From contig JAJYFR010000003.1 of the NCBI GenBank assembly GCA_021785355.1, positions 21,509-85,508 of the forward strand: DNA of 64,000 nt, read 5' to 3'. Positions within the stretch are counted from its first letter, which is position 1, and each line of letters opens with the position of its first letter. Positions 8,208 to 40,255 of the stretch are shown here, piece after piece. The translations under genes were made by a program, and so were the position numbers. The notes under the pieces are model-generated. The model was not told the origin of the DNA. It did no database searches and saw only the letters and a program-made list of their open reading frames with translations. Source of the stretch: a bacterium. Lineage in GTDB: Bacteria; Patescibacteriota; Dojkabacteria; JAKAPS01; JAJZLI01.

Positions 8208-8209
8208 AA

Positions 8210-8285: not shown

Positions 8286-8293
8286 ATAAAACT

Positions 8294-8366: not shown

Positions 8367-8376
8367 ATATTACAAT

Positions 8377-8448
8377 GGGCAGTACAGGGATCGGACCTGT
8401 GACATCTACGGTGTAAACGTAGCGCTCTACCAGCTGAGCTAACTGCCC
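8377..8448 (-). tRNA. tRNA-Val (anticodon TAC).
   Basis: Reverse complement GGGCAGTTAGCTCAGCTGGTAGAGCGCTACGTTTACACCGTAGATGTCACAGGTCCGATCCCTGTACTGCCCA. Anticodon loop TTTACAC. Confidence 0.8.
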
Positions 8449-8472
8449 TTTTTTATATATAAAGGTCTTATT

Positions 8473-8557
8473 TTTTTTAGAATGGGCAGAAGAGGAGTTG
8501 AACCTCCACACCAATAAATTAGGCACAACCACCTCAAGGTTGCGTGTCTACCATTCC
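8473..8557 (-). tRNA. tRNA-Leu (anticodon GAG), class II with a long variable arm.
   Basis: Reverse complement GGGCAGGTGGTGGAATGGTAGACACGCAACCTTGAGGTGGTTG...GGAGGTTCAACTCCTCTTCTGCCCA. Anticodon loop TTGAGGT. Confidence 0.75.
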
Positions 8558-8622
8558 ACCACCTGCCCAATTTATGTAAGACATCGTATGATATTATATT
8601 GTGTAATGAGGATTTTTGCAAA

Positions 8623-8708
8623 TGCTAGAAAGAGGATTCGAACCTCCACATCTATAATAAGATACAATGTTCTGAACATTGCGTGTCTACCATTTCACCA
8701 TTCTAGCT
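8623..8708 (-). tRNA. tRNA-Leu (anticodon CAG), class II with a long variable arm.
   Basis: Reverse complement GCTAGAATGGTGAAATGGTAGACACGCAATGTTCAGAACATTG...GGAGGTTCGAATCCTCTTTCTAGCA. Anticodon loop TTCAGAA. Confidence 0.75.
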
Positions 8709-15030: not shown

Positions 15031-15072
15031 AAGCTATTTACATACCTTAAAACTATTGAGATAATAAAGGTA

Positions 15073-16509
15073 ATGAAAAGAAATATAATACTTCTAATTC
15101 TGGATGGTTTTGGTATATCAAAAGAAAAATATGGGAATGCTATACTACAAGCTTCTACTCCAACTATAAACTATTTATATAAAAATTCTTTTGTATCGAC
15201 TCTTGAAGCTAGTGGAGAAAGTGTTGGATTACTTCCTAACAGTGCTGGAAACAGTGAAGTTGGTCATTTAAATATTGGAGCAGGAAGAATAGTAGACCAA
15301 TACTCTTACCTAATACATAAGGATATATTAAACAAAACTTTCTTTACAAATAGAAAAATAAAGGAAGAAGTATCAAAAACAAAAGGAGAGATACATTTAA
15401 TGGGGCTTGTATCTGATGGTCAAGTTCACTCTAATATGGAAATTATAGAATCTTTAATAGAAAGTATTGATAGAGAAAAAATATATTTAGATATATTCTC
15501 AGATGGAAGAGATTCTGGATATAAGAGTGTTGAAGAATATATAAAAAGATTAGGTAAATATAAAGATAAAGTTATTATATCCTCAATCATAGGGAGATTT
15601 TATGCTATGGATAGAGATAACAGAGAGAAAAGAATTAATAAAGCATTTGAACTTTTATATACTCATAAAGGTAGTGAGGTTAAAAATGTTTTTGAGGCAA
15701 TAGAGATGTCTTATAAAAAAGATATAACAGATGAATTTATTGAGCCTTTTTATATAAAGAATACACCTCCTATTAAAGATGAGGATTTGGTTATTTTTTT
15801 TAATTTTAGAGAAGATAGAGCAAGAGAATTATCTTTGAAATTTTTAAACAATACAAATGTTAATCTTCTTTGTATGACACAATATACAAATGATATTCAA
15901 AATTTTATATATCCTAGAATAAAAGTTGAAAATACACTAGGTAGTATTTTAGAAAAAAATAATTTATCTCAACTACGAATAGCCGAAACTGAAAAATATG
16001 CACATGTAACATATTTTTTTGATGGTGGAGAAAATATTGTATATAAGAGAGAGAAAAGAGATATAATACCTTCACTTAAAATATCTACATATGATAAGAA
16101 ACCTCAAATGAGAGTTTTTGATATAACAAAAACTATAATATCTAATATAGAAAATTTTAATTTTATATTAGCTAATTTTGCTAATCCAGATATGGTAGGT
16201 CATACAGGATCTCTTAGTAAAACTATAGAGAGTATAGAGTATGTAGATAAAGCAATAAAAGAAATTTTAGATGATTTGAAAGATAATATACTTATAATAA
16301 CAGCAGATCATGGAAATGCAGAAATTATGCTAGATAAAAAAGGTATTATTAATAAATCACATACAATAAGTAAAGTTCCTTTTATAATATATAATTATAA
16401 AAATATATCAGTATTAAAAAATGGAAAGCTAGCAGATATAGCTCCAACCATACTCAAAATATTAGATATAAAGAAACCAAAAGATATGTCAGGAGACTCT
16501 TTAATATGA
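15073..16509 (+). CDS. gpmI: 2,3-bisphosphoglycerate-independent phosphoglycerate mutase.
   Basis: N-terminus ILLILDGFGIS...GNAI..ASTP..., GNSEVGHLNIGAGRIVDQ, ADHGNAE; 478 aa. Confidence 0.85.
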   Translation: MKRNIILLILDGFGISKEKYGNAILQASTPTINYLYKNSFVSTLEASGESVGLLPNSAGNSEVGHLNIGAGRIVDQYSYLIHKDILNKTFFTNRKIKEEVSKTKGEIHLMGLVSDGQVHSNMEIIESLIESIDREKIYLDIFSDGRDSGYKSVEEYIKRLGKYKDKVIISSIIGRFYAMDRDNREKRINKAFELLYTHKGSEVKNVFEAIEMSYKKDITDEFIEPFYIKNTPPIKDEDLVIFFNFREDRARELSLKFLNNTNVNLLCMTQYTNDIQNFIYPRIKVENTLGSILEKNNLSQLRIAETEKYAHVTYFFDGGENIVYKREKRDIIPSLKISTYDKKPQMRVFDITKTIISNIENFNFILANFANPDMVGHTGSLSKTIESIEYVDKAIKEILDDLKDNILIITADHGNAEIMLDKKGIINKSHTISKVPFIIYNYKNISVLKNGKLADIAPTILKILDIKKPKDMSGDSLI

Positions 16510-17423
16510 ATTATAAAGTATTAGATCATATAGAGGAAAATACATTTAAATCTAATTTTTTAGAAACAGAAAATTGGGCTTTATTAAAACAAGAAGAAGG
16601 TTGGAAATCTTTTTTTATTCATTTTTATATTAATGATAAATTAATAGGCTATACTCTACTTTTAGAAAAGAAAACTAATATATTTAAACTTCATTACATA
16701 CCAAGAGGTCCAATAATAGAAGAAGAGTATTTTAAAGAAGCACTTGACCTTATAATTTCATTCTCAAAAAAAGAAGGAGCTTTTCTTCTAACAATAGAAC
16801 CTTCTTTAGAATATTCAGATACAAGGATAAAATACTTAGAAAAATTTAAAGAGAGTTCTGTATCATATCAACCTAAAGAGACAGCTATTATAAATTTAGA
16901 AGAAGATATTATAAAAAATATTCCTTCAAAAAAAAGAGGAAGAATTAGAAATAAGCATAATCTCATATTTAGAGAAACTGATGATTTAGAAAATTTTTAT
17001 AAACTGTATAAAAATACATTTGAAAACAATAATTTCAAGGGAAGAAGTTTGAACTATTTTCATAATATGAAAAAATGTTTTAAAGAAGACATGTTAATAT
17101 TTGAAGTATTACATGAGAATACAGTTATATCATCTTCTGTAAATATAGTACACCAAGATAGTATAACGTATCTTTATTCAGGATCTCTAAAAGAATTTAA
17201 TAATCTTTATCCTGGATATTTATTAGTATATGAAACTGCTAAATATGCCCAGAGTATAGGGTTAAAATCTTTTGATCTATGGGGCGTAAGTTATGATAAT
17301 CCTTCTTGGAAAGGTTTTAGTGAATTTAAGTTTAATATGGGAGGGAGATATTTTAAATTTTTAGGTAATTTTGATTATTCTTTCAATAATCTACTCTACT
17401 TCGTATATAAAAAACTTAAATAG
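16506..17423 (+). CDS. FemAB-like / GNAT-fold acyltransferase-like protein (weak call).
   Basis: 305 aa with an HYIPRGP motif and a region resembling peptidoglycan bridge-formation (Fem/MurM) family. Start overlaps the gpmI stop (ATGA). Confidence 0.3.
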   Translation: MNYKVLDHIEENTFKSNFLETENWALLKQEEGWKSFFIHFYINDKLIGYTLLLEKKTNIFKLHYIPRGPIIEEEYFKEALDLIISFSKKEGAFLLTIEPSLEYSDTRIKYLEKFKESSVSYQPKETAIINLEEDIIKNIPSKKRGRIRNKHNLIFRETDDLENFYKLYKNTFENNNFKGRSLNYFHNMKKCFKEDMLIFEVLHENTVISSSVNIVHQDSITYLYSGSLKEFNNLYPGYLLVYETAKYAQSIGLKSFDLWGVSYDNPSWKGFSEFKFNMGGRYFKFLGNFDYSFNNLLYFVYKKLK

Positions 17424-25075: not shown

Positions 25076-25157
25076 CGCTGGGGTGGCGGAATAGGTATAC
25101 GCGACGGACTTAAAATCCGTTGAAGCAATTCATGCGGGTTCGATTCCCGCCCTCAGC
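25076..25157 (+). tRNA. tRNA-Leu (anticodon TAA), class II.
   Basis: GCTGGGGTGGCGGAATAGGTATACGCGACGGACTTAAAATCCGTTGAAGCAATTCATGCGGGTTCGATTCCCGCCCTCAGCA. Anticodon loop CTTAAAA. Confidence 0.8.
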
Positions 25158-25164
25158 AATCTTT

Positions 25165-25238
25165 ACGGAATGTAGTTCAGTTGGCTAGAACGCTTGCTTT
25201 GGGAGCAAGAGGTCGTGGGTTCGAGTCCCGCCATTCCG
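25165..25238 (+). tRNA. tRNA-Pro (anticodon GGG).
   Basis: CGGAATGTAGTTCAGTTGGCTAGAACGCTTGCTTTGGGAGCAAGAGGTCGTGGGTTCGAGTCCCGCCATTCCGA. C1:G72 pair typical of bacterial tRNA-Pro. Anticodon loop TTTGGGA. Confidence 0.8.
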
Positions 25239-25283
25239 AGTATGCATGACAAATGCCTTTTTACCCCCTTTAAAGAACATATC
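25236..25283 (+). repeat. Left copy of a 48-bp direct repeat, starting in the last 3 nt of tRNA-Pro.
   Basis: CGAGTATGCATGACAAATGCCTTTTTACCCCCTTTAAAGAACATATCA. 46 of 48 identical to the copy at 28741-28788, and similarity extends about 8 nt further 5' into the tRNA end. Confidence 0.8.
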
Positions 25284-25484
25284 AGTCCGATTTTTTCCTC
25301 TCTTAATTTGACTCTTAAGATTATCATATTCTTTTTTTCTGCTCTAAATTAATATGACAATTATTTGATATGGTTGATATTATTACAATATCTTTATCTA
25401 GGTTTTTTAATACCCCAAGAAGAAATAATAGATATAATTGAAAAATGTATTCTCAAAATTAAAAGTATAGAAGATCAACATAGA

Positions 25485-26525
25485 TTAATGAATTGTATTT
25501 TTATTATACCTATGTAATGCTATCAAAACAACCTTTTCTACTAAATCGTCAAAAGATACTCCTTCAAAACTAGCCATTTTTGTTAAAGTATTATTTAATC
25601 CATGTGTATTTGGCCCTATTCCAGGATTATAGTTTACTTCAAGTAAGTAAATATTATTTTGTGCATCAATCCTAAAATCAATTCTTGCATAATCCCTACA
25701 TTCAGATACAATAAAAGCCTTTCTACTATATATTTCCAACTTTTCAATAATAGCAGGACTTAAGTTGGCTCTTACCATTTTTTCTTTCTTCCCTCCCCAT
25801 TTATATTCATATGAACGAATTTGTTGTAATTCTGAATTTGTACCTTCAAACAAAAATTCAAGTGGCGGGAATATATGTAAATCTGGTGGATTTCCTATCA
25901 TACCAACTGATATTTCTCGTCCTGATATGAATTGCTCTACCAAAACTGGTTGATTATATCTATCTAATGATTCTTGAATTTTCACCATAAGACTAGCTTC
26001 ATCAATAATCACACTATCTTGATATATCCCTATACTTGCTTCTTCTCTTACAGGCTTAACAATAAGTGGGAATCTAAGACCTTCCTGCAAAACTTCACTA
26101 CCAGATCTAAAAAGTTGATGTGGAGGAACAGGAATACCATATGAATTAAGTACTAAATTAGTTTTCTCTTTATCCATAGTAAAGTGCATATTATGTGAAG
26201 AGGCTCCAGTAAATGGAATATTTAATCCTTCAAGTATTGCAGGAACAACAGTTTCATTAGTATTCCCACCTCCAAAAGCTTCTGCTAAATTAAGAACAAT
26301 ATCAATAGTACTTTTTCTTAATTTTAATTGTTCCCACAATTCATAATCTGCCTTTAATGTATTAATATTATATCCCCTAGAAGTTAACAATTGAACCATC
26401 AATGGAACAATAATCTTAATCTCTTGTTCACAGATCAGATCACTCGGAATTCCTTTTTCAAGTCTTTCTGCATCATTATAAAGAATTAAAATTGATTCTG
26501 GCATTATCTTACTTATAAATTGCAA
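25485..26525 (-). CDS. ATP-grasp fold ligase (D-Ala-D-Ala ligase-like / RimK-like carboxylate-amine ligase).
   Basis: 346 aa. Ddl-like N-terminal region AEAFGGGNTNETVVPAILEGLNIPFTG, central FPLIVKPVREEASIGI, C-terminal LLEVNYNPG. Confidence 0.65.
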   Translation of the reverse strand: MQFISKIMPESILILYNDAERLEKGIPSDLICEQEIKIIVPLMVQLLTSRGYNINTLKADYELWEQLKLRKSTIDIVLNLAEAFGGGNTNETVVPAILEGLNIPFTGASSHNMHFTMDKEKTNLVLNSYGIPVPPHQLFRSGSEVLQEGLRFPLIVKPVREEASIGIYQDSVIIDEASLMVKIQESLDRYNQPVLVEQFISGREISVGMIGNPPDLHIFPPLEFLFEGTNSELQQIRSYEYKWGGKKEKMVRANLSPAIIEKLEIYSRKAFIVSECRDYARIDFRIDAQNNIYLLEVNYNPGIGPNTHGLNNTLTKMASFEGVSFDDLVEKVVLIALHRYNKNTIH

Positions 26526-27012
26526 TACACTGACAAATAATAAGGTTCTCTTTCGTTATATATTCTCCTGTAAAATCAAACCATACGCTCATAAATATTT
26601 CCTTTTCTATTCTTCTACTCTTTCCAATTTCTGGATCTTGTAGATATATATATTTATTATCTAATCCATAGACTACACTATAATGTCCATCAGGCACATC
26701 TTCGTCAGTATAATCAGATCTACCTCGTGTAAACCAATTTACAATAACAGGAACTCCTTTATTTAACCATTCTTCAATATCTTTAAAAGTACTATTGTTT
26801 TTTATAGTTACTTTAAATCCAAAACTTTCAGCTGTTTTTTTTAGACTAATATCATTAGTACCTAAATTTTTATCTGTAAAACATAGTTTTGCCAACTTTC
26901 CTTCATCCTCTTCAATCCCATAATAAGATAATATAATTTTCAACGATGCTGGACCACACATACCAGAATTTAAAGTTTCTTGAAAAGACTTAATATTTAA
27001 AAATTTCTTCAT
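26509..27012 (-). CDS. Standalone peptidase C39-like (papain-fold bacteriocin-processing-type) cysteine peptidase domain protein.
   Basis: 167 aa. QETLNSGMCGPASLKIILSYYG carries the C39 Gln/Cys motif, DGHYSVVYG carries the catalytic His. No transmembrane or ABC domains. Confidence 0.65.
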   Translation of the reverse strand: MKKFLNIKSFQETLNSGMCGPASLKIILSYYGIEEDEGKLAKLCFTDKNLGTNDISLKKTAESFGFKVTIKNNSTFKDIEEWLNKGVPVIVNWFTRGRSDYTDEDVPDGHYSVVYGLDNKYIYLQDPEIGKSRRIEKEIFMSVWFDFTGEYITKENLIICQCIAIYK

Positions 27013-27016
27013 GTTA

Positions 27017-28354
27017 TTAATTATTTTGTAAATTAAATATATCTAGCATTTTGTTATATATTACAAAAGCTTTATCTTTAGATTTACCTATTATTATAAA
27101 TCCTAATTTTGGTTCCCATTTATTTATAATTGATATTATAACACCTTGCGCTTCTCCATACATAGGATATAATATATTTTGTAATTTATATAAAATTTCT
27201 TCTGCATTCAATATCCTATTCCCATATTTAAAATTATCATTTGAAAAAGCATATATTTTATTTTCCCAATTATTCCCCAATAAGAATTTGAGTACATCAT
27301 AGACATGAGTTCCACCAGTTTTCCTCATATTTGTTTCAATAACATAAGGGTCATCCTTGTTAGACAAAACAAAATCAATATCAAAAATTCCTCTATAACC
27401 TAGTTTTTTAAATTTACTTCCTATTTGTAATGAAATTTTTTTAATTTTTCTTAAAGTAGCTTGTGAAAAAACTCTACCTACAGCAATCCCTTGAAATGTT
27501 CCTTCTAAACTTAAAATTTGATTGCAAACATATGTAACTAAAACTTCTTTATCTGATATAAAAAGTTCAGAAGACGGCGATATTATTTTAGTATTATTTT
27601 TAGAATTTATATATTCCTCTACTAGTATCAAATCTTTATCCCATATTTGAGTTTCTCCAAATTTTTTCATAATATAAAAAATACACTCTTGGATATTATT
27701 AAATTGATTTTTATAAACAAAAATTAATCCCCAACCAGATTCTCCAAAATTTGATTTAATTACACAAGATTTATCATTCTTATAAAACCAGAGTGCAATG
27801 TTCATTGCATGTTTCTTATCCGTACATATAATGCTCTCAGGAGTGAAAATATCTGCTCTTATAATTTTATTAATTTCTGTTCTAGAACCAACCTTAGAAT
27901 CAAGGTATGAAACTAACCAATCTTCGTTATTTAATGGTCTTTCTCTAATTATAAAATTTAAACCTTGTGATTTAAATAAATCTATCAATGAAATAAATTT
28001 TTCAGTTATAGCATAAGGAGAAATTTCAATCTGAGGGTTTTCTTTAATAATTATATATAATTCATTTAATAATTTTTTATCCTGTTTTATTGCATCAGAT
28101 AAACTAATGTCAATATGTTGTGGAAATAAATTTTTTATATTTTTGTAACCTAATACATTTTTATTATGATCAAATAATTTTTGATTTATGAAAAATGGAG
28201 TTATAATAACTTTATCATCTCTCTCTAATAATAATGCACGTTCACATAGACTATGTTCTACTTGTGTATATAATAATTTCTTTTTATTAGAACTAATCTT
28301 GTTAATAGAGTTTTCAAATGCTTCGGCAATATTAGCAATGATAATAACTTTCAT
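27017..28354 (-). CDS. Second ATP-grasp-like protein (a pre-ATP-grasp plus ATP-grasp architecture).
   Basis: 445 aa. CVIKSNFGESGWGL resembles the ATP-grasp glycine-rich loop; VIETNMRKTGGTH resembles the C-terminal ATP-grasp motif. Confidence 0.45.
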   Translation of the reverse strand: MKVIIIANIAEAFENSINKISSNKKKLLYTQVEHSLCERALLLERDDKVIITPFFINQKLFDHNKNVLGYKNIKNLFPQHIDISLSDAIKQDKKLLNELYIIIKENPQIEISPYAITEKFISLIDLFKSQGLNFIIRERPLNNEDWLVSYLDSKVGSRTEINKIIRADIFTPESIICTDKKHAMNIALWFYKNDKSCVIKSNFGESGWGLIFVYKNQFNNIQECIFYIMKKFGETQIWDKDLILVEEYINSKNNTKIISPSSELFISDKEVLVTYVCNQILSLEGTFQGIAVGRVFSQATLRKIKKISLQIGSKFKKLGYRGIFDIDFVLSNKDDPYVIETNMRKTGGTHVYDVLKFLLGNNWENKIYAFSNDNFKYGNRILNAEEILYKLQNILYPMYGEAQGVIISIINKWEPKLGFIIIGKSKDKAFVIYNKMLDIFNLQNN

Positions 28355-28740
28355 AATTCTAAAATTTTTAATATTTTAAATATAAAACCAAAGAAATTAA
28401 CCTATATGAAGATACCTATTAATACAATAGAAAACGCTCTTGTTTTCATTAATTTTCATTCTTAATCTTAATGGTTTAAATATAGGTGACAACAAATTTT
28501 CATCTGATGCATCTACCTCTACCATATCTGTAAAACATTTGTCATATTATTTACTGTATTATCATCATTACTCATATACATCTTATTAATATATACTTTG
28601 TACCGTCATTATAGCAGAATTCATTACTATTTTTTTTATTAATAGCACTAGAGAATTCTTTGTTAAAAGTGTTTGTATGAAGGCTTAATACTATTGCATC
28701 ATATATTATTTCTATATGTTCAAACTCTGTAGCCTTATCT

Positions 28741-28788
28741 CGAGTATGCATGACAAATGTCTTTTTACCCCATTTAAAGAACATATCA
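28741..28788 (+). repeat. Right copy of the 48-bp direct repeat.
   Basis: CGAGTATGCATGACAAATGTCTTTTTACCCCATTTAAAGAACATATCA. Confidence 0.8.
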
Positions 28789-29087
28789 AATGGATTATTT
28801 AGATCACACGACAACAACTTCTTGTCCTTAATGAGATATTTAAAAAAATCTATATATTACTTTTTTTTATTTTCTTTTATCAGATTTTCTACATCTAATA
28901 TAGATTGAAATCCGATATCTTCTGCAACTTCTGCTGATATACCGTCGTATTCACCTCCAATTTGATTGGTCCTTATATTATCTAAGAAAACTGATATTAT
29001 ATCTTTTTCTGTAGTATTCATAGTATATGTATATTATATTTCAAATAAATAAAAAAATCTATATATAAGTATATTATCGCAATTTAA

Positions 29088-30134
29088 TTAATACCAATTA
29101 AATTGACATTCATGATTATATGCACTTACAATATCTCCTTGATATCTTACTTTTATATATTCAAATAAGGATTGGATTTGAGAATCCAATGTCCAATATA
29201 CTGTTTGAGATTGAACATTAACTTGTTGTTCACAAGGATCTTGTTGCATTAAACCACAAGCTCCTGATTTAGGATTTATTGCATTAGGATTAAATTTAGA
29301 CTCTATTGATACAATATAATCTAAATAAAAAATTTCCCAAGGACTGTATCCATACTGAGATACAGCTTCTTGATTAATCATATTTTTTATACCATTAGGT
29401 GATAAAGGAGCTACACTAGGAGATGAAGGTATCATATGTTGAACTGCAGATGTTTCTATCTTTGGAGCCGTAGTAATAGGAGGTGTATTTTTTGGTATTG
29501 AAATCTCTCCTTCTTTTTTTTGTGCTATTGAATATAAAACAGGTTTAGCAATTTTATCTATTTGTTGAGATGAACTATTAGATATATAGGATGATTTGTT
29601 ATAAAGATCATCATTTTTCGTAAAATGATAAAAATTATACAAACCTAGAAGAGAGACAATAGAAAGTAATCTTATAGGTGTATCAGATTTATATTTTGAT
29701 ATTTTCTCTCTTTTAAAAAATAGATCCAGATTCTTTTTTATTTTTTTCTTAAGATCTATACTCTGATCTTCTATTAAATGAAAATTATCCTGAAGATATA
29801 AGGATATGATATCTAAATCTCTTGTATCTAAATCATCTATTAATGTTCTGTGAGCTGAAGTTAGTCTCAAAAGTTCTCTTATTATAAAAGCTTCTATTAT
29901 AATTTCTTTTGGCGAAGTTTGATCTTGAATATCTTTAAAATCCTTAACTCTTTTATTTAGTTCTAATAGGCTTATTTCTCTTTTTGATAAATTGGTATTA
30001 TCCTTAGAACCTTCAAATAGAAATAGACCTTCTTCTGATTTCAACCATAAATCATCAATAATAAGTCTTTTATCTAGAGATTCAAAATAAACACCTTTTC
30101 TATACTCCTCTGGAGGTAATATTTTTTCCATCAT
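29088..30134 (-). CDS. Protein with a C-terminal lytic transglycosylase (SLT)-like domain.
   Basis: C-terminal IESKFNPNAINPKSGACGLMQQ matches the SLT family-1 ES...GA.GLMQ signature. N-terminal region with a transmembrane segment. Confidence 0.5.
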   Translation of the reverse strand: MMEKILPPEEYRKGVYFESLDKRLIIDDLWLKSEEGLFLFEGSKDNTNLSKREISLLELNKRVKDFKDIQDQTSPKEIIIEAFIIRELLRLTSAHRTLIDDLDTRDLDIISLYLQDNFHLIEDQSIDLKKKIKKNLDLFFKREKISKYKSDTPIRLLSIVSLLGLYNFYHFTKNDDLYNKSSYISNSSSQQIDKIAKPVLYSIAQKKEGEISIPKNTPPITTAPKIETSAVQHMIPSSPSVAPLSPNGIKNMINQEAVSQYGYSPWEIFYLDYIVSIESKFNPNAINPKSGACGLMQQDPCEQQVNVQSQTVYWTLDSQIQSLFEYIKVRYQGDIVSAYNHECQFNWY

Positions 30135-30376
30135 TGTTTATATATAATAAATATAAAATATGGAACTTTAAAAAATTAAAAAGATAAACTTTTATAAATA
30201 TGAACTAGGAAAAATTATTTTATATCTAAATATTTGAGTACAGAAATTTATTTATGTGCTTAAAAGTTTAAATATAACCTTACCTTTATATTTATTATCT
30301 AATTTAATAAAGATCTATCCTATAATAACATGCGATATGTATATTTGCAAGTTTTACATTATTAATTAAGTATAAT

Positions 30377-30997
30377 TTACAAGGATTTTTCTAATATATC
30401 ACTCCAGGAAAAAACTCTTTCTATTTCATTAGGTAAATTTTTTATACTATGATTCCATGGTCTATCCATTAAAAATGTTTTTATACCTACATTTTGATAA
30501 ACATCTAATACATTATTTACGGAATCATCTATAAATATATCAGCATTTATATTTCTGCAAATTTCTGATTTTTTTCTACTTTTGTCATAAAAATGATTAG
30601 TAAAAAATATATTTTCAAAAGTATCTTCACTAAAATACGAAGAAATATTACCTATTGTAGAATCTTCTATAAAATCAGGTCTTGCTGTAACAATGTAAAG
30701 TTGATATTTATTTCTAAGAGAAAAAATTGCATCAAAAGCACCTTCTATTAATTTAAGTTCTTTATTTGAATTTAAAAATTCTTCTATTCTTCTTATAGAT
30801 TCTTCATGAGTACATCCCCATATCTTAGCTAAATCAAAACTATCTATATCTTCATATTTCAAAGAGGTTCCATATTTTAAATTATGAAATTCTATTAAGC
30901 TTCCATTTAGATCCAGAACTGTATCATCTAAGTCTATAGCCATAACTTTATTAGGCTTATACACTTCTCTATTTGTTAATAATTCTAGATTATTCAT
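30377..30997 (-). CDS. HAD-superfamily hydrolase, 5'(3')-deoxyribonucleotidase-like.
   Basis: HAD motif I AIDLDDTVLDL; later FIDDS. 206 aa. Confidence 0.5.
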   Translation of the reverse strand: MNNLELLTNREVYKPNKVMAIDLDDTVLDLNGSLIEFHNLKYGTSLKYEDIDSFDLAKIWGCTHEESIRRIEEFLNSNKELKLIEGAFDAIFSLRNKYQLYIVTARPDFIEDSTIGNISSYFSEDTFENIFFTNHFYDKSRKKSEICRNINADIFIDDSVNNVLDVYQNVGIKTFLMDRPWNHSIKNLPNEIERVFSWSDILEKSL

Positions 30998-31035
30998 TTT
31001 ATAAAATATGATTATACCATGTAATTTATAAATTT

Positions 31036-31722
31036 TTAAAATCCGAATTTTTCATAATATATTTTATCCTTATTTATATTACATGCTTCTAATAATTTCT
31101 TTGTATCCATAACCATGTGAGGTGCACCACATATATAGAAAGATATATCTTCCTTTTCTTTTTCATTTTCAAGATATTCAATCATAACCCTATTAATTCT
31201 TCCTCTCTCTCCATTCCATAATGTATCTTTATTTGTAATAGAATATATAATATTTATTCCTTCAATATTAATTTGAGGAAACTCATTTTTATCTCTAGCT
31301 CCTAAAAAAAGAATTATATCTTTTTTATCTTTTATATTTTTAATCATTGGTATAAAAGGAGATATACCACTTCCTGTAGCAATAAACCAATTTTTATGAG
31401 TAACTTCATTATTATTATATATAAAATCACCCATTGGTCCTGCAAAAAAAATTTCTTTATTTATATTGAACTCTTTTATACTTCTTCTTCCTATTCCATC
31501 CCCATTAATATTTACAATTATTGAAAATACAGTTTTATTTAATGAGACTTCATATATAGAATAATTCCTAGCAACCACACCTTCAATATATAAAATTATA
31601 TATTGACCAGGAATATATTCAAAAAAATCAGTTTTAAAATCAATTTTCAAAAGATTAGAAGAGATTTTCTCTACATTAATAATTTTAGCTTCTCTCTTTT
31701 TATAAAATAATTTATTAAACAT
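31036..31722 (-). CDS. FNR-like FAD/NAD(P)-binding oxidoreductase domain protein.
   Basis: RNYSIYE (RxYS FAD-binding motif), ATGSGISPF (NAD(P)-binding GxGxxP motif). 228 aa. Confidence 0.6.
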   Translation of the reverse strand: MFNKLFYKKREAKIINVEKISSNLLKIDFKTDFFEYIPGQYIILYIEGVVARNYSIYEVSLNKTVFSIIVNINGDGIGRRSIKEFNINKEIFFAGPMGDFIYNNNEVTHKNWFIATGSGISPFIPMIKNIKDKKDIILFLGARDKNEFPQINIEGINIIYSITNKDTLWNGERGRINRVMIEYLENEKEKEDISFYICGAPHMVMDTKKLLEACNINKDKIYYEKFGF

Positions 31723-32170
31723 GGAGTATTCTTACAACTGCTATAAAAAAAGAATAATGGAATATCAAAACTCCTAAAAACATATGAATAAATACAAATA
31801 ATAAAGATATAAAACCTAAAATATAGTGTATTTTAGATGAAGGTAATTGATACTTTTTAAATGGTTCTATATTGTAATACTTTATAATTCCAGTTATAAA
31901 AGCAAATAAAAAGAAAATAAAAGCTATTAGACCTGCCCAATAATCAAGATTATAGAATTCAAATGTAGATAGAGCTAAAGATACATGCACTATAACCATT
32001 ATAATAGTAGACCATCCTAAATAGGGATGTATTCTATTTAAAAACACTTGATATCTAACCCATATTTTTAAATTATATTTTATTATAATTGCAGTTATAA
32101 TAAGCAAAGCCAGTAAAAAAACTGCTAAAATTCCAGTTACGGCTATATATGTAAATATACCAAAATTCAT
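31715..32170 (-). CDS. Ferric-reductase-like transmembrane (heme b-binding) domain protein, the partner of the FNR-like gene.
   Basis: 151 aa, four transmembrane helices with conserved His pairs (VHVSLAL..., HYILGF..., FIHMFLG). Overlaps the start of the FNR-like gene (a split NOX/FRE architecture). Confidence 0.45.
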   Translation of the reverse strand: MNFGIFTYIAVTGILAVFLLALLIITAIIIKYNLKIWVRYQVFLNRIHPYLGWSTIIMVIVHVSLALSTFEFYNLDYWAGLIAFIFFLFAFITGIIKYYNIEPFKKYQLPSSKIHYILGFISLLFVFIHMFLGVLIFHYSFFIAVVRILHV

Positions 32171-32286
32171 TTTTTTATATAGAGATATTATTAGACTAGA
32201 GTCTTGGATAAGATTACATAAGTATTATTAAAATTAAATTAAAAATTTAATCTATTAATAATTTGTGATACAATCACCTATTAATT

Positions 32287-32616
32287 ATGAAACTAGAAAG
32301 AGATAATAGTTTAGAAGAGAATATAGATATCTTAAGTCTTATAGGATTTAAATATGCGCAAAAGTTTGAAGAAGAGACACATTCTTCTCTAACAAGTTTG
32401 ATAGATAAATTAATTGAATTAAGAAAAATACAAAATAAAGAACTTCCTCCTTTACATTTACTTTTGCCTATAAATCAAGAAAGATTTGAAGATATCTGTA
32501 GAGTAATGAATTCACTATATTTAGAAGATGAAGAAAAAGAAGAAATTGACTATGCTATTAACACTCTTTCTACATCTTATGGATATGATGTACCTATAAA
32601 AATTACTTCAGAGTAA
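32287..32616 (+). CDS. Hypothetical acidic protein.
   Basis: 109-aa ORF convergent with the MarR gene; no motif. Confidence 0.3.
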   Translation: MKLERDNSLEENIDILSLIGFKYAQKFEEETHSSLTSLIDKLIELRKIQNKELPPLHLLLPINQERFEDICRVMNSLYLEDEEKEEIDYAINTLSTSYGYDVPIKITSE

Positions 32617-35514: not shown

Positions 35515-37908
35515 TTATTTTACAAATTTCCAATCAGTAATTTCTTCTGGATCTTTACCATATTTATTAATATAATCTCTATGCCAATTAATTATATCTA
35601 TATATTTTTTCTTTACATCATCTATTTTGGAGACATCATACTTGTTCCTTACAAGATCCAACGCCATCATTGCAATATGAAATCTAGATGTCTTATTTCT
35701 AATATACATATCAAAAGGAGTAGTAGTGGTTCCTTCTTCAATATAACCATTAATTATAAATCTAGAAGTGTCACCTCTATCAAATAAAAGCTGTTTTATA
35801 GCAGAAGGATATCCTATATAACTTATAATAACAGGCTTATCTTTTGTGAAATATGATATAAAATCTTTATTTGATAACCCCAAAGAAAATTCTTCAGGAG
35901 TTTCTAAAACCATTAAATTCGAAACATTTAATATTCTAAACTTTATTTCAGAAAAATCTTCTTTTAATAAAGATGAAGCAGCTAAAACTTCCTCTGTTGC
36001 ATAATCACCCATTCCAACAATAACCACATCACAATCATCACCAGAAGAAGATGCCCAATCCCAATAAGCAATACCTTTACTCATTAATTCCTTAGCCTCT
36101 TGTTGTTCTAAAAGTAAAGGTCTTTCGTCTTTTCCTGCAACAACTATATTTATTTTGTTCTTCTCTTCTAAACACATTTTCATGGTATATAAAAGTGAAT
36201 TAGGATCAGGTGGTAAATATACATTCAAAAGATCACTCTTTTTGTTTAACATATTATTTATAAAACCAGGAGATTGATGAGAGTATCCATTATGTTCTTG
36301 CCTCCAACTCAAAGATGTAAGTAAATAATTTAAAGATGAAACAGGTTTTCTCCAAGGAATCTCTAGTGATACTTTCAAAAATTTAGAGTATTGATTCATC
36401 ATGCTATCTACTATTGGTAAAAATGCTTCATAACTAGGGAATAATGCATGTCTACCTGTCAGAACATAACCTTCCATCCATCCTTGACAGATATGCTCAG
36501 ATAGTATTTCCATAACTCTTCCTTCTGGAGCAATAAAATCATCGTATTTAGAGTGAGGCCATAAATATTGTCTCTCAGTCACTTCAAATACAGCTTCCAA
36601 TTTATTTGAAATTAATTCATCAGGAGAAAATATTCTAAAATTTCTCTTTTCTTCATTTTTAGAAATAACATCTCTCAAATACTGACCTACCCTCTCCATT
36701 CCACTTGATCTTACAGAACATCTACTCTCTAAATCAAATGAATATCCATCAATACTAGGTAAAGACAAAGATATTCTAACTTCTCCACCCAAAGAATGAA
36801 TGTTTGTTCCCATTCTTCTATCTCCCTTAGGTATAATTGAAAATAACTCATTAATCATGGTTTTATCTTCATTTAATAATTCTCCAATATTATAAGAAGA
36901 AAGCCAATCTTGTACTAATCTTAAATGATTTTTATTTGTCTTTACATCTACTGCAGGAACTTGATGAGCTCTGAATGAACCTTCAATTTTCTTACCATCC
37001 ATTTCTTTTATTCCTCCCATACCTTTTGGAGTCTTAAGTACTATTAATGGCCATCTAAAAGGACCATACATATTTGTAGATCTAGCAGAACTTTGTATAC
37101 TTCTGATTTGGTTATATGCCCACTCCATAGCAGAAAATAAATCTGCATTTATATCTGTATCTTGAGCTATATGCACATCATATCCTAATCCTTCGAAATA
37201 AGAGATTATCTCAGAATTACTCATTGTGCCAAATAAAGTAGGATTTGATATCTTATACCCATTCAAATGTAGAATAGGTAAAACTGCTCCATCATAAACA
37301 GGATTAATAAATTTATTACTTTGCCAAGAAGCAGATAAAGGTCCAGTTTCTGCTTCACCATCTCCTATTATACATGCAGTGATAAGATTAGGATTATCTA
37401 GTATTGAACCATAAGCAATAGATAAAGAATATCCTAGTTCTCCACCTTCTGATATTACACCAGGTAGTGAAGGATCTAAATGAGAAGGAAATCCTCCTGG
37501 CCAACTAAACTCTTTAATTAGATATTTAATACCCTTCTCATCCATTGTAAGATTAGGAAAATATTCACTCAATGTTCCTTCAAGATATAAATTAGCCCTA
37601 TTAGCTGGAGATCCATGACCCGGTCCTGTAACCAACATCATATTCAAATCATATTCAACTATCAATCTATTTAAATGAGCATAAATAAGGTTTATTCCTG
37701 GATCTGTCCCCCAATGTCCTAATAGTCTTTCCTTTATATCAGAGGGTATAAGTTCTCTTTCTAAAAAAAAATTATCCTTCAGATATAACTGTGCTGCAGA
37801 AAGGTAATTCGTTAATCTTAAATATTTTTCAATTAAATCTAATATATCACTATTTCTACTTCTAGTATCTCTTGTACTTTCTGGTCTTATTATTACTTCT
37901 TTTATCAT
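35515..37908 (-). CDS. xfp: Xylulose-5-phosphate / fructose-6-phosphate phosphoketolase.
   Basis: 797 aa. Signature EGGELGYSLSIAYG and GDGEAETGPL (thiamine-diphosphate-binding). Confidence 0.9.
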   Translation of the reverse strand: MIKEVIIRPESTRDTRSRNSDILDLIEKYLRLTNYLSAAQLYLKDNFFLERELIPSDIKERLLGHWGTDPGINLIYAHLNRLIVEYDLNMMLVTGPGHGSPANRANLYLEGTLSEYFPNLTMDEKGIKYLIKEFSWPGGFPSHLDPSLPGVISEGGELGYSLSIAYGSILDNPNLITACIIGDGEAETGPLSASWQSNKFINPVYDGAVLPILHLNGYKISNPTLFGTMSNSEIISYFEGLGYDVHIAQDTDINADLFSAMEWAYNQIRSIQSSARSTNMYGPFRWPLIVLKTPKGMGGIKEMDGKKIEGSFRAHQVPAVDVKTNKNHLRLVQDWLSSYNIGELLNEDKTMINELFSIIPKGDRRMGTNIHSLGGEVRISLSLPSIDGYSFDLESRCSVRSSGMERVGQYLRDVISKNEEKRNFRIFSPDELISNKLEAVFEVTERQYLWPHSKYDDFIAPEGRVMEILSEHICQGWMEGYVLTGRHALFPSYEAFLPIVDSMMNQYSKFLKVSLEIPWRKPVSSLNYLLTSLSWRQEHNGYSHQSPGFINNMLNKKSDLLNVYLPPDPNSLLYTMKMCLEEKNKINIVVAGKDERPLLLEQQEAKELMSKGIAYWDWASSSGDDCDVVIVGMGDYATEEVLAASSLLKEDFSEIKFRILNVSNLMVLETPEEFSLGLSNKDFISYFTKDKPVIISYIGYPSAIKQLLFDRGDTSRFIINGYIEEGTTTTPFDMYIRNKTSRFHIAMMALDLVRNKYDVSKIDDVKKKYIDIINWHRDYINKYGKDPEEITDWKFVK

Positions 37909-38249
37909 TCTTTTATCCTTATAAAATAAAATATAGAATTTTCTAGAGCTTCAATTTTATGCATCTCTCCTGCATTAAGTAAAATCACATCGTTTTTTTC
38001 ATACTCTTTTACATGATCCTCATCTTTATATTTAACATATCCTTTACCTTCTATAACCAAAGCTATTTCATCTGAACTTTCATGTTTATGCCAATCAAAA
38101 AAATTTCCTTTTAAAAGGTAATCTTTATTTAATATATCAAAATGTGGGTTATCAATATCTTTATTTGTAATAATTTCTCTTTTTCTTCCCTCTCCTCCAT
38201 GGGCAGGACTAAATTCAATATCTTTTATCTTTCTTATAATTATACACAT
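37905..38249 (-). CDS. Cupin domain protein.
   Basis: 114 aa. Cupin His/Glu pattern (HKHESSDEIALVIEG...GEMHKIEA). Overlaps both neighbouring genes. Confidence 0.45.
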   Translation of the reverse strand: MCIIIRKIKDIEFSPAHGGEGRKREIITNKDIDNPHFDILNKDYLLKGNFFDWHKHESSDEIALVIEGKGYVKYKDEDHVKEYEKNDVILLNAGEMHKIEALENSIFYFIRIKE

Positions 38250-40255
38250 AAATATATCTTAGGATCTACTGTCAAAATATCTCCTTTCTTAGTTAAGATA
38301 ATTGGATTTATATCTATCTGAGATATCTGAGGAATATTTTCAATTAGATAAGATAATCCCATTAACACATTAATAATATCACTCTCTTTGTATTTTTCAA
38401 GACCTCTAAACCCATGTAAAAGAGGGTAAAATTTAGTTTTTCTTAAAAGATTCAAAGCCTCTTCTTCATTTATAGGGAGATACTCTTTTATATGATCATC
38501 TAAAATTTCTGTTAGAATACCTCCTGTACCTAACACTATTACAGAACCTATACCTTCATATCTTATAACTCCTGTCATTATTTCAAAAGTTGAATCAATA
38601 TACTCTTGCATTAATACTCTACTAGATAAAGATTGCAATCTTCTATACGAAGATAATAAATCTTCATAGTTTTGAATATTATTAATAACCCCCTTCTTAT
38701 CTGATTTATGAGGAATATCTTTATCCTCTACTTTTAAAGTTAAAGGATATCCTATATTAAGAACTGATTTCTCTAAATCTTCTATATTTTCTATTACTCT
38801 GAATTTAGGAAATTTAATATTAAATTTTTCTAAAATATTTACACTATCTTCAAATCCTAAAATTTTACCTTTATTATTGCTATCAATTATTGAAATGATT
38901 TCTTTTTTATCTATCTTTAAATTATTTTCATATTTTATAGATTTACCATGAATAAATTTATCTAAATAGTTTAAAGCATTAATAGCTCTCTCAGGGAAAC
39001 TATATGAGGGAATCTGAAGATTTGTGAGAAAATTTATAGCTTTTTGAGCATAAAAGCCTCCTGTAAAAACTGAAATTACAAATTTTTCTGAACAAGTTAA
39101 TGAAAAATCGTTTATAACATTAGCAATTTCATCAATATCAGTACTTGCTTGAGGCGTTATTATAACCATAACTATATCTATATTTTCATCATCTTTTAGT
39201 ATATCTAAAACATCTCTATATCTTTGAGATTGAGCATCACCTAGTATATCAATAGGATTTGATACTTTTCTTCCTGAAAAATATTTCTCCAGTTTATCTT
39301 TTGTCTCTTGTGATAATTCAGCAAAAGATATTTGGCTTCCTTCCATACAATCAGTAGCTAAAATTGCCATACCTCCTGCGTTTGTAACAATTGCAAGCCT
39401 TGTTCCTTTAATATTGTTATACTTTAAATTTGCAAAAATTTTTGACACATCAAATAAATCTTCTAAAGAGGTTAGTTCTAATATGTTATTTTTTCTTAAT
39501 GCTAAAGAAAGAATATCTCTATCCGATACTATAGCACCTGTATGTGATTGTATTTCAACTTGAGATTTATTACTTTTCCCAGGAGAAAGTATAAATTTAG
39601 GATTTTTTATTTTACCAAAATTATCCATAAATTCTTTGAAATTATCTATACTTTCAAGGTAAAAACATAAACAATCATCTTCTTCTATATGATCCAAAAT
39701 ATCAATTTCAGATATATCCATTTTATTCCCCAAAGATATTGCTTTTCTGATACCTAAGTTATTTTCAGCTGAAAAATCAATAAGGGATGTAAGTATTGCC
39801 CCTGATTGAGTTACCAAAAACAAATTTCCTTCTTTAATATTTTCATTTTTACTAAATGAAGCATTTATACTTGATGATAGTACTCCACATGAATTAGGCC
39901 CAACTACTTTTATATCAGTATCTTTTATAAGGTCTTTTATTTTATTTTCACTATCTATATCTCCTGACTCTTTAAATCCTCCTGCTATTATAACTATACT
40001 TTTTACTTTTTTCTCTACACACTCTGTTACAACATTTACTACATCTTTTTTAGGTATAACAATTACAACAAGATCAATTTCATCTTTAACATCAAGAATA
40101 GAACTATAGAAAGAAGAATCATTTTTATTTACGCCATAAAGTTTACCTTTAAATGAAGAATTCTTTATATTTTTTAATATCCTATATCCTGCTTTAGCAG
40201 TATTTGTACTTGCACCAATAACAACAACAGATGAAGGATTAAATATTTTATCCAT
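38240..40255 (-). CDS. ADP-forming acetyl-CoA synthetase (NDP-forming acyl-CoA synthetase, fused alpha/beta).
   Basis: N-terminal CoA-binding Rossmann region SVVVIGASTNTAKAGYRILKN, succinyl-CoA-synthetase-like ligase domain, C-terminal ATP-grasp. 671 aa. Adjacent to phosphoketolase. Confidence 0.7.
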   Translation of the reverse strand: MDKIFNPSSVVVIGASTNTAKAGYRILKNIKNSSFKGKLYGVNKNDSSFYSSILDVKDEIDLVVIVIPKKDVVNVVTECVEKKVKSIVIIAGGFKESGDIDSENKIKDLIKDTDIKVVGPNSCGVLSSSINASFSKNENIKEGNLFLVTQSGAILTSLIDFSAENNLGIRKAISLGNKMDISEIDILDHIEEDDCLCFYLESIDNFKEFMDNFGKIKNPKFILSPGKSNKSQVEIQSHTGAIVSDRDILSLALRKNNILELTSLEDLFDVSKIFANLKYNNIKGTRLAIVTNAGGMAILATDCMEGSQISFAELSQETKDKLEKYFSGRKVSNPIDILGDAQSQRYRDVLDILKDDENIDIVMVIITPQASTDIDEIANVINDFSLTCSEKFVISVFTGGFYAQKAINFLTNLQIPSYSFPERAINALNYLDKFIHGKSIKYENNLKIDKKEIISIIDSNNKGKILGFEDSVNILEKFNIKFPKFRVIENIEDLEKSVLNIGYPLTLKVEDKDIPHKSDKKGVINNIQNYEDLLSSYRRLQSLSSRVLMQEYIDSTFEIMTGVIRYEGIGSVIVLGTGGILTEILDDHIKEYLPINEEEALNLLRKTKFYPLLHGFRGLEKYKESDIINVLMGLSYLIENIPQISQIDINPIILTKKGDILTVDPKIYLCV

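Follow-up and report, generated by a model that had tools for sequence, protein, structure and literature searches.

Patescibacteria (CPR bacteria) have tiny genomes and very little biosynthetic capacity. What, in such a genome, is the function of three genes that encode two ATP-grasp enzymes and a papain-fold peptidase, and how did they come to lie between direct repeats beside a tRNA-Pro gene? We analyzed the 64,000-nucleotide stretch of DNA that carries them (hereafter, the window) together with related loci from other genomes. We propose, with a probability of about 0.5, that the genes form an operon for NRPS-independent synthesis of a small peptide, inserted via a 49-nt sequence next to tRNA-Pro (Table 1).

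A block inserted beside tRNA-Pro

The two 49-nt repeat copies are identical at 47 of 49 positions, and the match extends at 88% across 60 nt (25237 to 25296 versus 28741 to 28800). A 28-nt core of the repeat, with up to 3 mismatches, occurs in two places only in the 64 kb (0.00 expected in 100 shuffles). Because tRNA-Pro ends at position 25239, the left copy overlaps only the last 3 nt (CGA) of the tRNA gene, and the rest lies downstream. The tRNA-Leu/tRNA-Pro pair and its flank are syntenic with four related loci, L088 to L091 (PBP1A 63 to 69% identical), at which the three genes are absent.

In L088, whose syntenic DNA is ~72% identical, a single repeat copy links the end of tRNA-Pro straight to the right flank of the window (28736 to 28832 versus 9010 to 9106 in L088; 78% over 97 nt, E = 2e−21). 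L088 therefore represents the empty site, and the 3.5-kb block is an insertion at the tRNA-Pro-adjacent position. The left flank of the left repeat aligns with the tRNA-Pro flank of L088 and L089, and its right flank does not. At the same boundary, the cargo of L089 is different and consists of one DsbA-family gene and one gene of 155 aa. As a gene cassette inserted into a hotspot that flanks a tRNA gene of a CPR bacterium, the block is an unusually clean case, and a relative still has the empty site. The block may have entered by recombination within the 49-nt sequence, which would have duplicated that sequence. A relic of a neighboring gene within the insert fits poorly with a simple one-step insertion, and counts against our preferred explanation; in L088, the matching sequence covers the 3′ end of a 125-aa gene plus the DNA just beyond it, and that gene lies ~170 nt away from the repeat at tRNA-Pro.

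Like tRNA-adjacent integrative islands, the locus has direct repeats around its cargo, one of them at the 3′ end of a tRNA gene, as well as an empty site and alternative cargo in relatives. Unlike them, the segment has no integrase, its repeat and tRNA overlap by just those 3 nt, and its composition does not deviate (GC content of 0.263 in the insert and 0.269 in the window). Pfam, NCBIfam, and further family searches revealed no integrase, excisionase, transporter, or regulator between the repeats. The sole integrase of the window (6468 to 8207) is a serine integrase, a type not known to leave long direct repeats. Of the 28 related loci, 7 have a tRNA gene no more than 550 nt from the edge of the cluster (P ~0.002).

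A preliminary description of this DNA had reported 48-bp repeats (46 of 48 identical), the left one beginning inside the end of tRNA-Pro, that bracket three co-oriented genes without an integrase, transporter, or regulator, and had read the repeats as a mark of horizontal acquisition. Our alignments and family searches bear out these features of the locus, and the empty site and the absence of the genes at this locus in the nearest relatives back the insertion. It had also pointed to presence/absence polymorphism of the segment as a check. The segment is indeed absent from L088 to L091, but the 23 contigs with the exact window allele are all near-identical, and no polymorphism was seen within the species.

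Table 1. Positions of features in and around the inserted block (window coordinates)
Feature	Position	Strand	Remarks
tRNA-Leu(taa)	25077-25158		Just upstream of tRNA-Pro
tRNA-Pro(tgg)	25166-25239	+	ARAGORN; Rfam tRNA 70.4 bits; 3′ end abuts left repeat
Left repeat, attL-like	25237-25285		Joined to tRNA-Pro side
46-nt relic	25293-25338		Just inside left end of insert; 87% identical to L088 (blastn E = 2e−11)
Ddl-family ATP-grasp ligase	25485-26504	-	339 aa from ATG; ORF reaches TTG at 26525
Standalone C39-fold cysteine peptidase	26509-27012	-	167 aa; predicted cytoplasmic
PGM1/BesA-type ATP-grasp amino-acid/peptide ligase (predicted)	27017-28354	-	445 aa
Leader region of insert	28355-28740	-	386 nt; holds 42-aa ORF and most of 81-aa ORF
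42-aa ORF	28397-28525		Probably non-coding
81-aa ORF	28572-28817		Probably non-coding
Right repeat, attR-like	28741-28789		Joined to ancestral distal flank
Ancestral flank (Y)	28790-28832		In L088, directly follows the single repeat beside tRNA-Pro

Families of the three enzymes

The three genes are tightly packed on the minus strand in the order Ddl-like, C39-like, and second ATP-grasp, with both intergenic gaps of 4 nt. None of the encoded proteins has a hydrophobic segment, and all three are predicted to be cytoplasmic and soluble. The insert also has a 199-nt tail and a leader region, in which no Rfam riboswitch was found. Neither ORF of the leader region has a family match or a homologous small ORF in the 27 related loci, and the 81-aa ORF reads through the right repeat into the ancestral flank; both are probably non-coding.

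The Ddl-like protein matches Pfam family PF07478 (Dala_Dala_lig_C, 1.4e−29), and, among the 25 NCBIfam matches listed, it matches Ddl/Van models only. However, it falls below every NCBIfam cut-off for Ddl (NF002378, 141 versus 243 bits; TIGR01205, 132 versus 246 bits). BLAST aligns it with Escherichia coli DdlB at ~27% identity from residue 61 only, leaving the N-terminal 60 residues of DdlB unaligned. The family shares the fold of the Ddl/Van proteins and keeps their ATP/Mg and transition-state residues (K97, K144, E180, E187, K215, R255, D257, E270, and N272). At the D-Ala site, we examined seven DdlB residues (E15, H63, S150, Y210, Y216, S281, and L282; reference sequence checked against PDB 1iov). 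Four of them are replaced in all 26 family members (H63E, Y210R, Y216W, and S281G), and S150A is found in 24 of the 26; E15 and L282 are aligned and retained. The family further differs from Ddl/Van in an insertion after the NxG motif and in its lack of linkage to mur or fts genes: no mur gene adjoins the unit in any of the 28 loci. There is no second ddl in the 64-kb window or in any fetched locus. A true Ddl in conserved synteny, an outcome that would have spoken against a peptide-ligation module, is not what we found, given the failed cut-offs, the replaced D-Ala-site residues, and a context that is not syntenic between lineages. The protein is probably something other than a canonical D-Ala-D-Ala ligase.

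The peptidase is a genuine C39 protein with a papain-like fold (PF13529, 56 bits; PF03412, 54 bits; both over the cut-off), and its catalytic set of Q11, C19, H110, and D126 is invariant in 28 sequences. Its best solved relative by sequence is the pseudomurein endoisopeptidase PeiR (C71; 2.4e−10), from which it differs in being cytoplasmic and in lacking wall-binding repeats; it also matches two phage endolysin PHROGs. It differs from the C39 leader peptidases ComA, LahT, and PCAT1 as a standalone protein without a fused ABC exporter or a linked GG-leader substrate: there is no ABC exporter in the cluster, and no double-glycine substrate was found near the 27 related loci. Related C39 domains occur fused to AstE/AspA/M14 deacylase-carboxypeptidase domains, which fits the trimming of small peptides.

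The second, larger ATP-grasp protein matches Pfam ATP-grasp_3 and ATPgrasp_ST and NCBIfam BesA, LdmS, and biotin carboxylase models weakly. The profile of its family hits PDB 8ynd, an "ATP-grasp peptide ligase" (2.8e−16), PGM1 (1.6e−13), and BesA (2.3e−13), and the ATP-grasp motif (K200, E246, D325/D327, E340, N342, and R344) is invariant in 22 homologues. It resembles the PGM1/BesA-type peptide ligases, and we predict that it is one. As with PGM1 (pheganomycin) and BesA (gamma-Glu-propargylglycine), the motif is intact and no carrier proteins are involved. It differs from them in its low sequence identity, in being partnered by a Ddl-family ligase and a C39 peptidase with no linked precursor gene, and in its hosts, which are mostly labeled Patescibacteria rather than actinomycetes.

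Conservation and context in related genomes

Of 28 distinct related loci, most of them labeled Patescibacteria, 25 keep the three genes side by side as a unit. Two of the three exceptions have no Ddl-like match (for L026, one of these two, the contig breaks off at the ATP-grasp gene), and the third has no C39 gene. In the window and in L008, the usual gene order is cyclically permuted. The unit is rare: among 185,579 species genomes, ~37 of the 80 best loci contain it. A set of 5.8 billion proteins holds no C39 homologue above 74% identity and no homologue of the large ATP-grasp protein above 55%. Across loci, the Ddl-like and C39 proteins are 53 to 72% identical, whereas the housekeeping proteins iPGM and PBP1A of those genomes share 45% and 31%, respectively, and the wider neighborhood is not conserved between lineages. 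Horizontal spread of the unit among Patescibacteria is the best reading.

In 12 to 14 of the 28 loci, the unit lies beside genes for SbnA (403 bits; cut-off, 350), SbnB (330; 327), a diaminobutyrate transaminase (family, 457; 402), and a KamA-type aminomutase (family, 244; 199). None of these four amino-acid-supply genes is in the window, which weighs against the proposed pathway there. Beyond seven families, no other recurs in more than 5 triad loci. No carrier protein (PCP/ACP) was found in the cluster. That an operon is kept at such identity across distant classes, and is often joined to genes for three non-proteinogenic amino acids, suggests a small molecule or modification that matters to the symbiotic lifestyle of these bacteria.

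A proposed peptide pathway and its alternatives

We propose that the product is a small peptide, probably made from non-proteinogenic amino acids. The Ddl-family ligase would convert the carboxylate of a first amino acid to an acyl-phosphate and couple it to a second one; given the altered D-Ala pocket, D-Ala-D-Ala chemistry is unlikely. The PGM1/BesA-type ligase would make a second amide bond, by which the dipeptide is extended or joined to an acceptor amine, and the C39-fold Cys-His-Asp enzyme may cleave or transfer an amide bond of the product during maturation, turnover, or transfer. Since their biosynthesis genes flank the unit, L-2,3-diaminopropionate, L-2,4-diaminobutyrate, and a beta-amino acid are probable substrates in many relatives. 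The preliminary description had seen a minimal peptide-ligation module that it could not match to a described cluster. The pairing of peptide-bond-forming ligase families with a C39-fold peptidase agrees with the module, and we found no described cluster with these three genes in the literature. "Minimal" holds for the window, but not for the relatives that add the amino-acid-supply genes.

Parts of the proposed logic have precedents. Closthioamide (CtaD ATP-grasp and CtaG papain-like ligase) and butirosin (BtrJ and BtrH) likewise pair ATP-grasp with papain-fold proteins in ribosome-independent amide assembly, and their pathways involve beta- or unusual amino acids (PMC7183216, PMC12865890). 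The unit in the window differs in having no carrier protein and a peptidase that is not a papain-like ligase of the BtrH/CtaG type. In glutathionylspermidine/trypanothione synthetase-amidase, a CHAP papain-fold amidase is described as hydrolyzing the bond made by the ATP-grasp synthetase (PMC2427367). The unit in the window likewise combines ATP-grasp with a papain-fold enzyme, but in the synthetase-amidase both activities reside in one protein, the amidase is a CHAP domain and not a C39 one, and glutathione and spermidine serve as substrates.

The C39 fold itself, which typifies leader peptidases of ribosomal peptide pathways, counts against a non-ribosomal product. The peptidase could instead strip a double-glycine-type leader off a ribosomal peptide whose gene lies outside the cassette, with the PGM1-type ligase, supplied with a dipeptide by the Ddl-like ligase, acylating the freed N terminus with non-proteinogenic amino acids, as in a pheganomycin-like hybrid. 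We consider this hybrid unlikely. The 4- to 60-nt gaps between the unit's genes across loci leave no room for a precursor; no small ORF (18 to 110 aa) is conserved between any of the 27 related loci, no ORF with a GG motif recurs near them, and a 54-aa ORF outside the inserted block has no homologue in any fetched locus beyond this species. The same lack of a conserved small ORF bears on graspetide/microviridin-type macrocyclization of a ribosomal precursor, which the preliminary description had proposed from two ATP-grasp enzymes adjoining a C39-type peptidase. Graspetide clusters do exist in CPR bacteria, but the described loci have other partners, namely TPR proteins, "cluster 23" proteins, and metallopeptidases (PMC8939145). 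The ligases here are of the Ddl and PGM1/BesA types; no graspetide-maturase model is among the NCBIfam matches listed for either, and we found no precursor with a leader and a core of Thr/Ser/Lys and Asp/Glu. Macrocyclization of this type is largely refuted, and we regard it as very improbable.

Alternatively, the unit might build, edit, or salvage a stem or bridge peptide of peptidoglycan. The Ddl-like ligase would then make D-Ala-D-X or another dipeptide, the second ATP-grasp enzyme would add a side-chain residue, as the D-aspartate ligase Asl(fm) does, and the C39 enzyme would be an isopeptidase. The Ddl family of one ligase, the peptidase's similarity to PeiR and phage endolysins, the M14/AstE-type fusions of its relatives (MpaA, a murein peptide amidase, belongs to that domain family), and the nearby genes for PBP1A, an SLT-like protein, and FemAB in the window all favor a role in the cell wall. 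Yet all three proteins are predicted to be cytoplasmic and soluble, the D-Ala-site residues are substituted, the unit is rare, without a conserved neighborhood or adjoining mur genes, and the nearest relatives have PBP1A and FemAB and no unit at this locus. We therefore think such a role decidedly unlikely. We give still less credence to tagging of a cellular protein or peptide in the manner of RimK/tubulin ligases or pupylation, with the C39 enzyme as a processing or deconjugating peptidase. Neither ligase exceeds the RimK cut-off (18 versus 21 bits), no AAA+ or target gene is linked to the triad loci, and the amino-acid-supply genes point to small-molecule substrates.

Returning to NRPS-independent peptide synthesis, we tentatively suggest a broader version, which we hold to be possible but doubtful. 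In it, Patescibacteria would share horizontally a carrier-free, NRPS-free pathway, in which a remodeled Ddl-type ligase and a PGM1-type ligase join diaminopropionate, diaminobutyrate, and beta-amino acids into a short cationic peptide. The C39 enzyme, recruited from leader cleavage, would act as an isopeptidase or transpeptidase on this non-ribosomal product, which these minimal episymbionts might use as an effector, in place of a polyamine, or as part of the wall. The operon would also put a C39-fold enzyme to a new use next to ATP-grasp ligases.

NCBI automatic annotation names the Moranbacteria orthologue of the Ddl-like protein "D-alanine--D-alanine ligase." This label is probably wrong, and it affects metabolic reconstructions of cell-wall synthesis in Patescibacteria.

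A repeat-flanked block beside tRNA-Pro and its empty site

The three genes next to tRNA-Pro all lie on the minus strand between two copies of a direct repeat, which match at 88% across 60 nt and are identical at 47 of 49 nt (46 of the first 48). The preliminary description had claimed a 48-bp pair bracketing three co-oriented genes, and this pair is real; the 28-nt repeat core, allowing up to 3 mismatches, has only these two sites in the 64-kb window (expectation from shuffles, 0.00). The left copy begins inside tRNA-Pro, as had been claimed, and shares with it only the last 3 nt of the tRNA. Gaps of 4 nt separate the three genes, and comparisons with protein families, defense systems (PADLOC), and phage proteins revealed no other match between the repeats, in agreement with the reported absence of an integrase. 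The base composition of the insert is the same as that of its surroundings (GC of 0.263 versus 0.269 for the window). Promoter-like sites are not more common than in shuffled sequence, no terminator was found, and Rfam riboswitches were detected neither in the cassette nor in 8 related loci. A 26-nt repeat core had 0 matches in JGI metagenome contigs, yielding no extra copies or empty sites. Two small open reading frames (ORFs) of 42 and 81 aa in the block were rejected as genes because they have no homologues and, in the case of the 81-aa ORF, because the reading frame crosses the repeat into the ancestral flank. We also rejected a putative tRNA remnant (a degenerate 3′ half) upstream of the right repeat, as its alignment has no convincing similarity.

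Positions of the features of the window
Feature	Position	Strand	Remark
SNF2/PLD helicase-nuclease	686-4168	-	1160 aa
Serine integrase	6468-8207	+
tRNA array	8127-8707		six tRNAs
FemAB-family transferase	16506-17423	+
tRNA-Pro(tgg)	25166-25239	+
Left direct repeat	25237-25296
MarR/tRNA-Pro interval	25240-32600
Ddl-family ATP-grasp	25485-26504	-	between repeats
C39-like peptidase	26509-27012	-	between repeats
445-aa ATP-grasp	27017-28354	-	between repeats
Right direct repeat	28741-28800
54-aa ORF	28857-29021	-	just beyond right repeat
Phosphoketolase	35515-37908
ATP-grasp_5/CoA-ligase protein	38240-40255	-
TldD/PmbA metallopeptidase pair	51618-54408	-

The nearest sequenced relatives were found via the neighboring PBP1A, at identities of 69%, 64%, and 63%. 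Their contigs share with the window the order MFS transporter, MarR, variable region, tRNA-Pro, tRNA-Leu, and a 198/205-aa gene (replaced by a different 184-aa gene in relatives L090 and L091), followed by PBP1A, one or two signal peptidases, ParA, and ParB. The three cassette genes are absent from the corresponding locus of these contigs. In relative L088, which has ~72% DNA identity to the window across syntenic genes, tRNA-Pro is followed by a single repeat copy that runs directly into the homologue of the window's right flank (window 28736-28832 versus L088 9010-9106, 78% over 97 nt). In the junction alignment (A4), the tRNA side is common to L088 and the window's left junction, the distal side is common to L088 and the window's right junction, and the 49-nt sequence has one copy in L088 but two in the window. 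Because the single copy in L088 joins both flanks, the L088 arrangement is the empty site and the block is an insertion. This site, together with the absence of the genes from the locus in the nearest relatives, upholds the earlier claim of a horizontally acquired, repeat-marked segment. The presence/absence polymorphism suggested as a check exists between related genomes, which lack the genes at this locus, but not within the species, as strain variants L004 to L007 are 99.98-100% identical. Direct repeats flank the unit in none of 21 other loci and not in L008, a locus with the window's gene order.

The cargo at this boundary varies among the relatives. L089, which is close to L088, diverges there and carries a DsbA-family gene and a 155-aa gene instead, while L090 and L091 have still other genes at the tRNA-Pro flank. 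Because the cargo differs between L089, L090/L091, and the window, the tRNA-Pro flank is a recombination hotspot. Just inside the left end of the insert, positions 25293-25338 share 87% identity with the 3′ terminus of a 125-aa gene located ~170 nt beyond the repeat in L088, which suggests that a related genome donated the incoming DNA from its corresponding region. Such DNA may have entered as a circle, through a single crossover within the 49-nt sequence. The MarR/tRNA-Pro interval is different in every relative: L088 lacks the DsbA-family and 155-aa genes that L089 has there, and L090 has a phosphoketolase and an acetate kinase, the window's phosphoketolase being located elsewhere.

The window's only integrase (PHROG 95 “integrase,” 1e-38; Pfam Resolvase, 1.4e-9) is of the serine type. 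Enzymes of this type leave a common core of only 2 bp and do not create long direct repeats, and, therefore, this enzyme was rejected as the agent of insertion. The gene, a large serine integrase, runs into a six-tRNA array and is adjoined by a helicase-nuclease gene; the three probably represent a separate integrated element ~17 kb from the cassette.

Distribution of the three-gene unit

Database searches returned 102 homologues of the large ATP-grasp and 1381 of the peptidase, of which the best 120 are 64-74% identical; most homologues of both proteins with a named source are from Patescibacteria. In a genome scan, 319 of the 185,579 species genomes searched encoded relatives of the large ATP-grasp. 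The scan kept 80 loci, of which ~37 contain homologues at 32% identity or above; in these, the genes are adjacent wherever the contig permits. To 26 of these we added the window and L001, a metagenome locus from Moranbacteria, giving 28 distinct loci, 25 of which have all three genes side by side. Their most common order is Ddl-like, ATP-grasp, C39. The order in the window and L008 (ATP-grasp, C39, Ddl-like) is a cyclic permutation of it, as would be expected after passage via a circular or tandem intermediate.

Across the 28 loci, the genes around the unit are different in every lineage, and a tRNA gene of varying identity is located <550 nt from the cluster edge in 7 loci, versus ~1.8 expected (rough binomial P = 0.002). 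The Ddl-like and C39 proteins share 53-72% identity with their homologues, compared with 45% for iPGM (L001) and 31% for PBP1A (L039) among housekeeping proteins from the same genomes. Moreover, the database contains no C39 homologue above 74% identity and no large ATP-grasp homologue above 55%, though it includes the relatives with 62-69% PBP1A identity. Taken together with the patchy distribution, these observations point to horizontal spread of the unit among Patescibacteria, with the caveat of incomplete metagenome-assembled genomes. The unit is of interest for being both conserved and mobile in organisms of minimal metabolism, and for an insertion event that is unusually well documented.

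Some loci deviate from the common arrangement. L017 (8929-11356 of a 213-kb contig binned as Aminicenantes) has adjacent Ddl-like and PGM1-like genes (62% and 41% identity) with no C39 gene after them, and L011 has the ligase and C39 genes with no Ddl-like gene nearby. At L027, on a Daviesbacteria chromosome, the 16S rRNA match (13586-15755) spans 2170 nt versus a 1533-nt model, which implies a large insertion in that rRNA gene.

The enzymes and a candidate pathway

The Ddl-like protein is a member of the Ddl family, yet its score of 141 bits falls short of the 243-bit cut-off. We aligned 26 family members with Escherichia coli DdlB (identical in sequence to PDB 1iov). Catalytic and ATP/Mg residues do not vary (K97, K144, E180, E187, K215, R255, D257, E270, and N272), the D-Ala-site residues are replaced near-invariantly (H63E, S150A, Y210R, Y216W, and S281G), and an insertion follows the NxG motif. 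BLAST aligns the protein with DdlB from residue 61 onward only (27% identity). Judged from these alignments, it is predicted to be a Ddl-type ligase with a different substrate pocket. The name “D-alanine--D-alanine ligase,” automatically assigned by NCBI to the Moranbacteria orthologue, is probably over-specific. The family profile of the 445-aa ATP-grasp matches structures of an “ATP-grasp peptide ligase” (8ynd, 2.8e-16), the pheganomycin ligase PGM1 (1.6e-13), and the gamma-Glu-propargylglycine ligase BesA (2.3e-13), with weak NCBIfam matches to BesA and LdmS. Enzymes of the PGM1/BesA type catalyze amide-bond formation between the carboxylate of one amino acid and the amine of another amino acid or of a peptide. 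Because all three proteins lack hydrophobic segments, which the PBP1A control has, they are predicted to be cytoplasmic. In four relatives of the peptidase (P0370, P0384, P0421, and P0489), a C39-like domain (E values of 1e-23 to 1e-37) shares one polypeptide with an AstE/AspA/M14 deacylase-carboxypeptidase domain, a possible hint that small or unusual peptides are trimmed.

The unit has four additional neighbor genes in 12 to 14 of the 28 distinct loci, each scoring above its curated cut-off. SbnA (403 bits, cut-off 350) and SbnB (330 bits, cut-off 327) jointly make L-2,3-diaminopropionate. The others encode a diaminobutyrate--2-oxoglutarate transaminase family protein (457 bits, cut-off 402) and a KamA-family amino-acid 2,3-aminomutase (244 bits, cut-off 199), an enzyme type that yields beta-amino acids. 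All four are absent from the 64-kb window.

The evidence best supports a pathway free of carrier proteins and independent of NRPSs, in which two ATP-grasp reactions form amide bonds one after the other. A dipeptide made by the Ddl-type enzyme would be extended by the PGM1-type enzyme or coupled by it to an acceptor amine; diamino and beta-amino acids would serve as substrates in many lineages, and the C39-fold enzyme would hydrolyze or transfer an amide bond of the product. ATP-grasp enzymes are paired with papain-fold enzymes in glutathionylspermidine/trypanothione synthetase-amidase (PMC2427367) and in the closthioamide (CtaD/CtaG) and butirosin (BtrJ/BtrH) systems (PMC7183216, PMC12865890). 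We rate the unit as belonging with ATP-grasp amidoligase operons that have an associated peptidase. The ATP-grasp loci that Makarova et al. (2022; PMC8939145) described in CPR bacteria are of a different kind, and full-text literature searches turned up no account of the Ddl-like, PGM1-like, and C39 combination, consistent with the earlier statement that it matches no described cluster.

Alternatives and distant relatives

The peptidase fold would also fit a pheganomycin-like hybrid, in which the C39 enzyme cleaves a ribosomal peptide and N-acylation follows. We consider this unlikely, since a conserved precursor is absent: among 27 related loci, no two share a conserved small ORF, and a scan of related loci revealed no recurrent G-G-containing small ORF. 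The only candidate, the 54-aa ORF, lies outside the inserted block and, among the fetched loci, is limited to this species. It is a called gene in the source assemblies, with a double-glycine-like motif (…IRTNQIGG/EYDG…) and an acidic core ending in KENKKK. Graspetide-type macrocyclization of a ribosomal precursor, the microviridin-like logic favored by the preliminary description, is highly improbable: the search for short precursor ORFs came up empty in the same loci, the ligases belong to the Ddl and PGM1/BesA types, with no graspetide-maturase model among the NCBIfam matches listed, and the partner genes differ from those of the CPR graspetide loci already described.

A role of the unit in the cell wall would be in keeping with the Ddl family membership and with the similarity of the peptidase to PeiR and endolysins. 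However, the unit is rare, has no mur linkage, and has a changed D-Ala site, and we regard this role as somewhat less likely still than the pheganomycin-like hybrid. Protein tagging, for which the sole hint is the AAA+ association of distant homologues, appears improbable. This association is seen in some Gammaproteobacteria and Patescibacteria, where the large-ligase homologue is present two or three times in tandem, together with genes for a Ddl-like protein and a ClpB-like AAA+ ATPase.

Individual loci of this kind (L061 1788-9830, L078, L034, and L052) have the Ddl-like gene, one to three PGM1-like ligase copies (three in tandem in L061 and L078), and the ClpB-like AAA+ gene (PF07724, 2.8e-41). 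In a further 26 to 28 loci among L041 to L086, mostly from Chloroflexota (e.g., L045 6634-11199), a PGM1-like ligase follows two conserved proteins (~450 and ~370 aa), and 14 loci have another conserved protein, of ~240 aa, between the two. All three lack Pfam matches, and two-component or SpoIIE-type regulators are often nearby. Elsewhere in the window are a TldD/PmbA metallopeptidase pair, an ATP-grasp_5/CoA-ligase protein unrelated to the cassette ligases, and a FemAB-family transferase, which implies branched peptidoglycan bridges in this organism.
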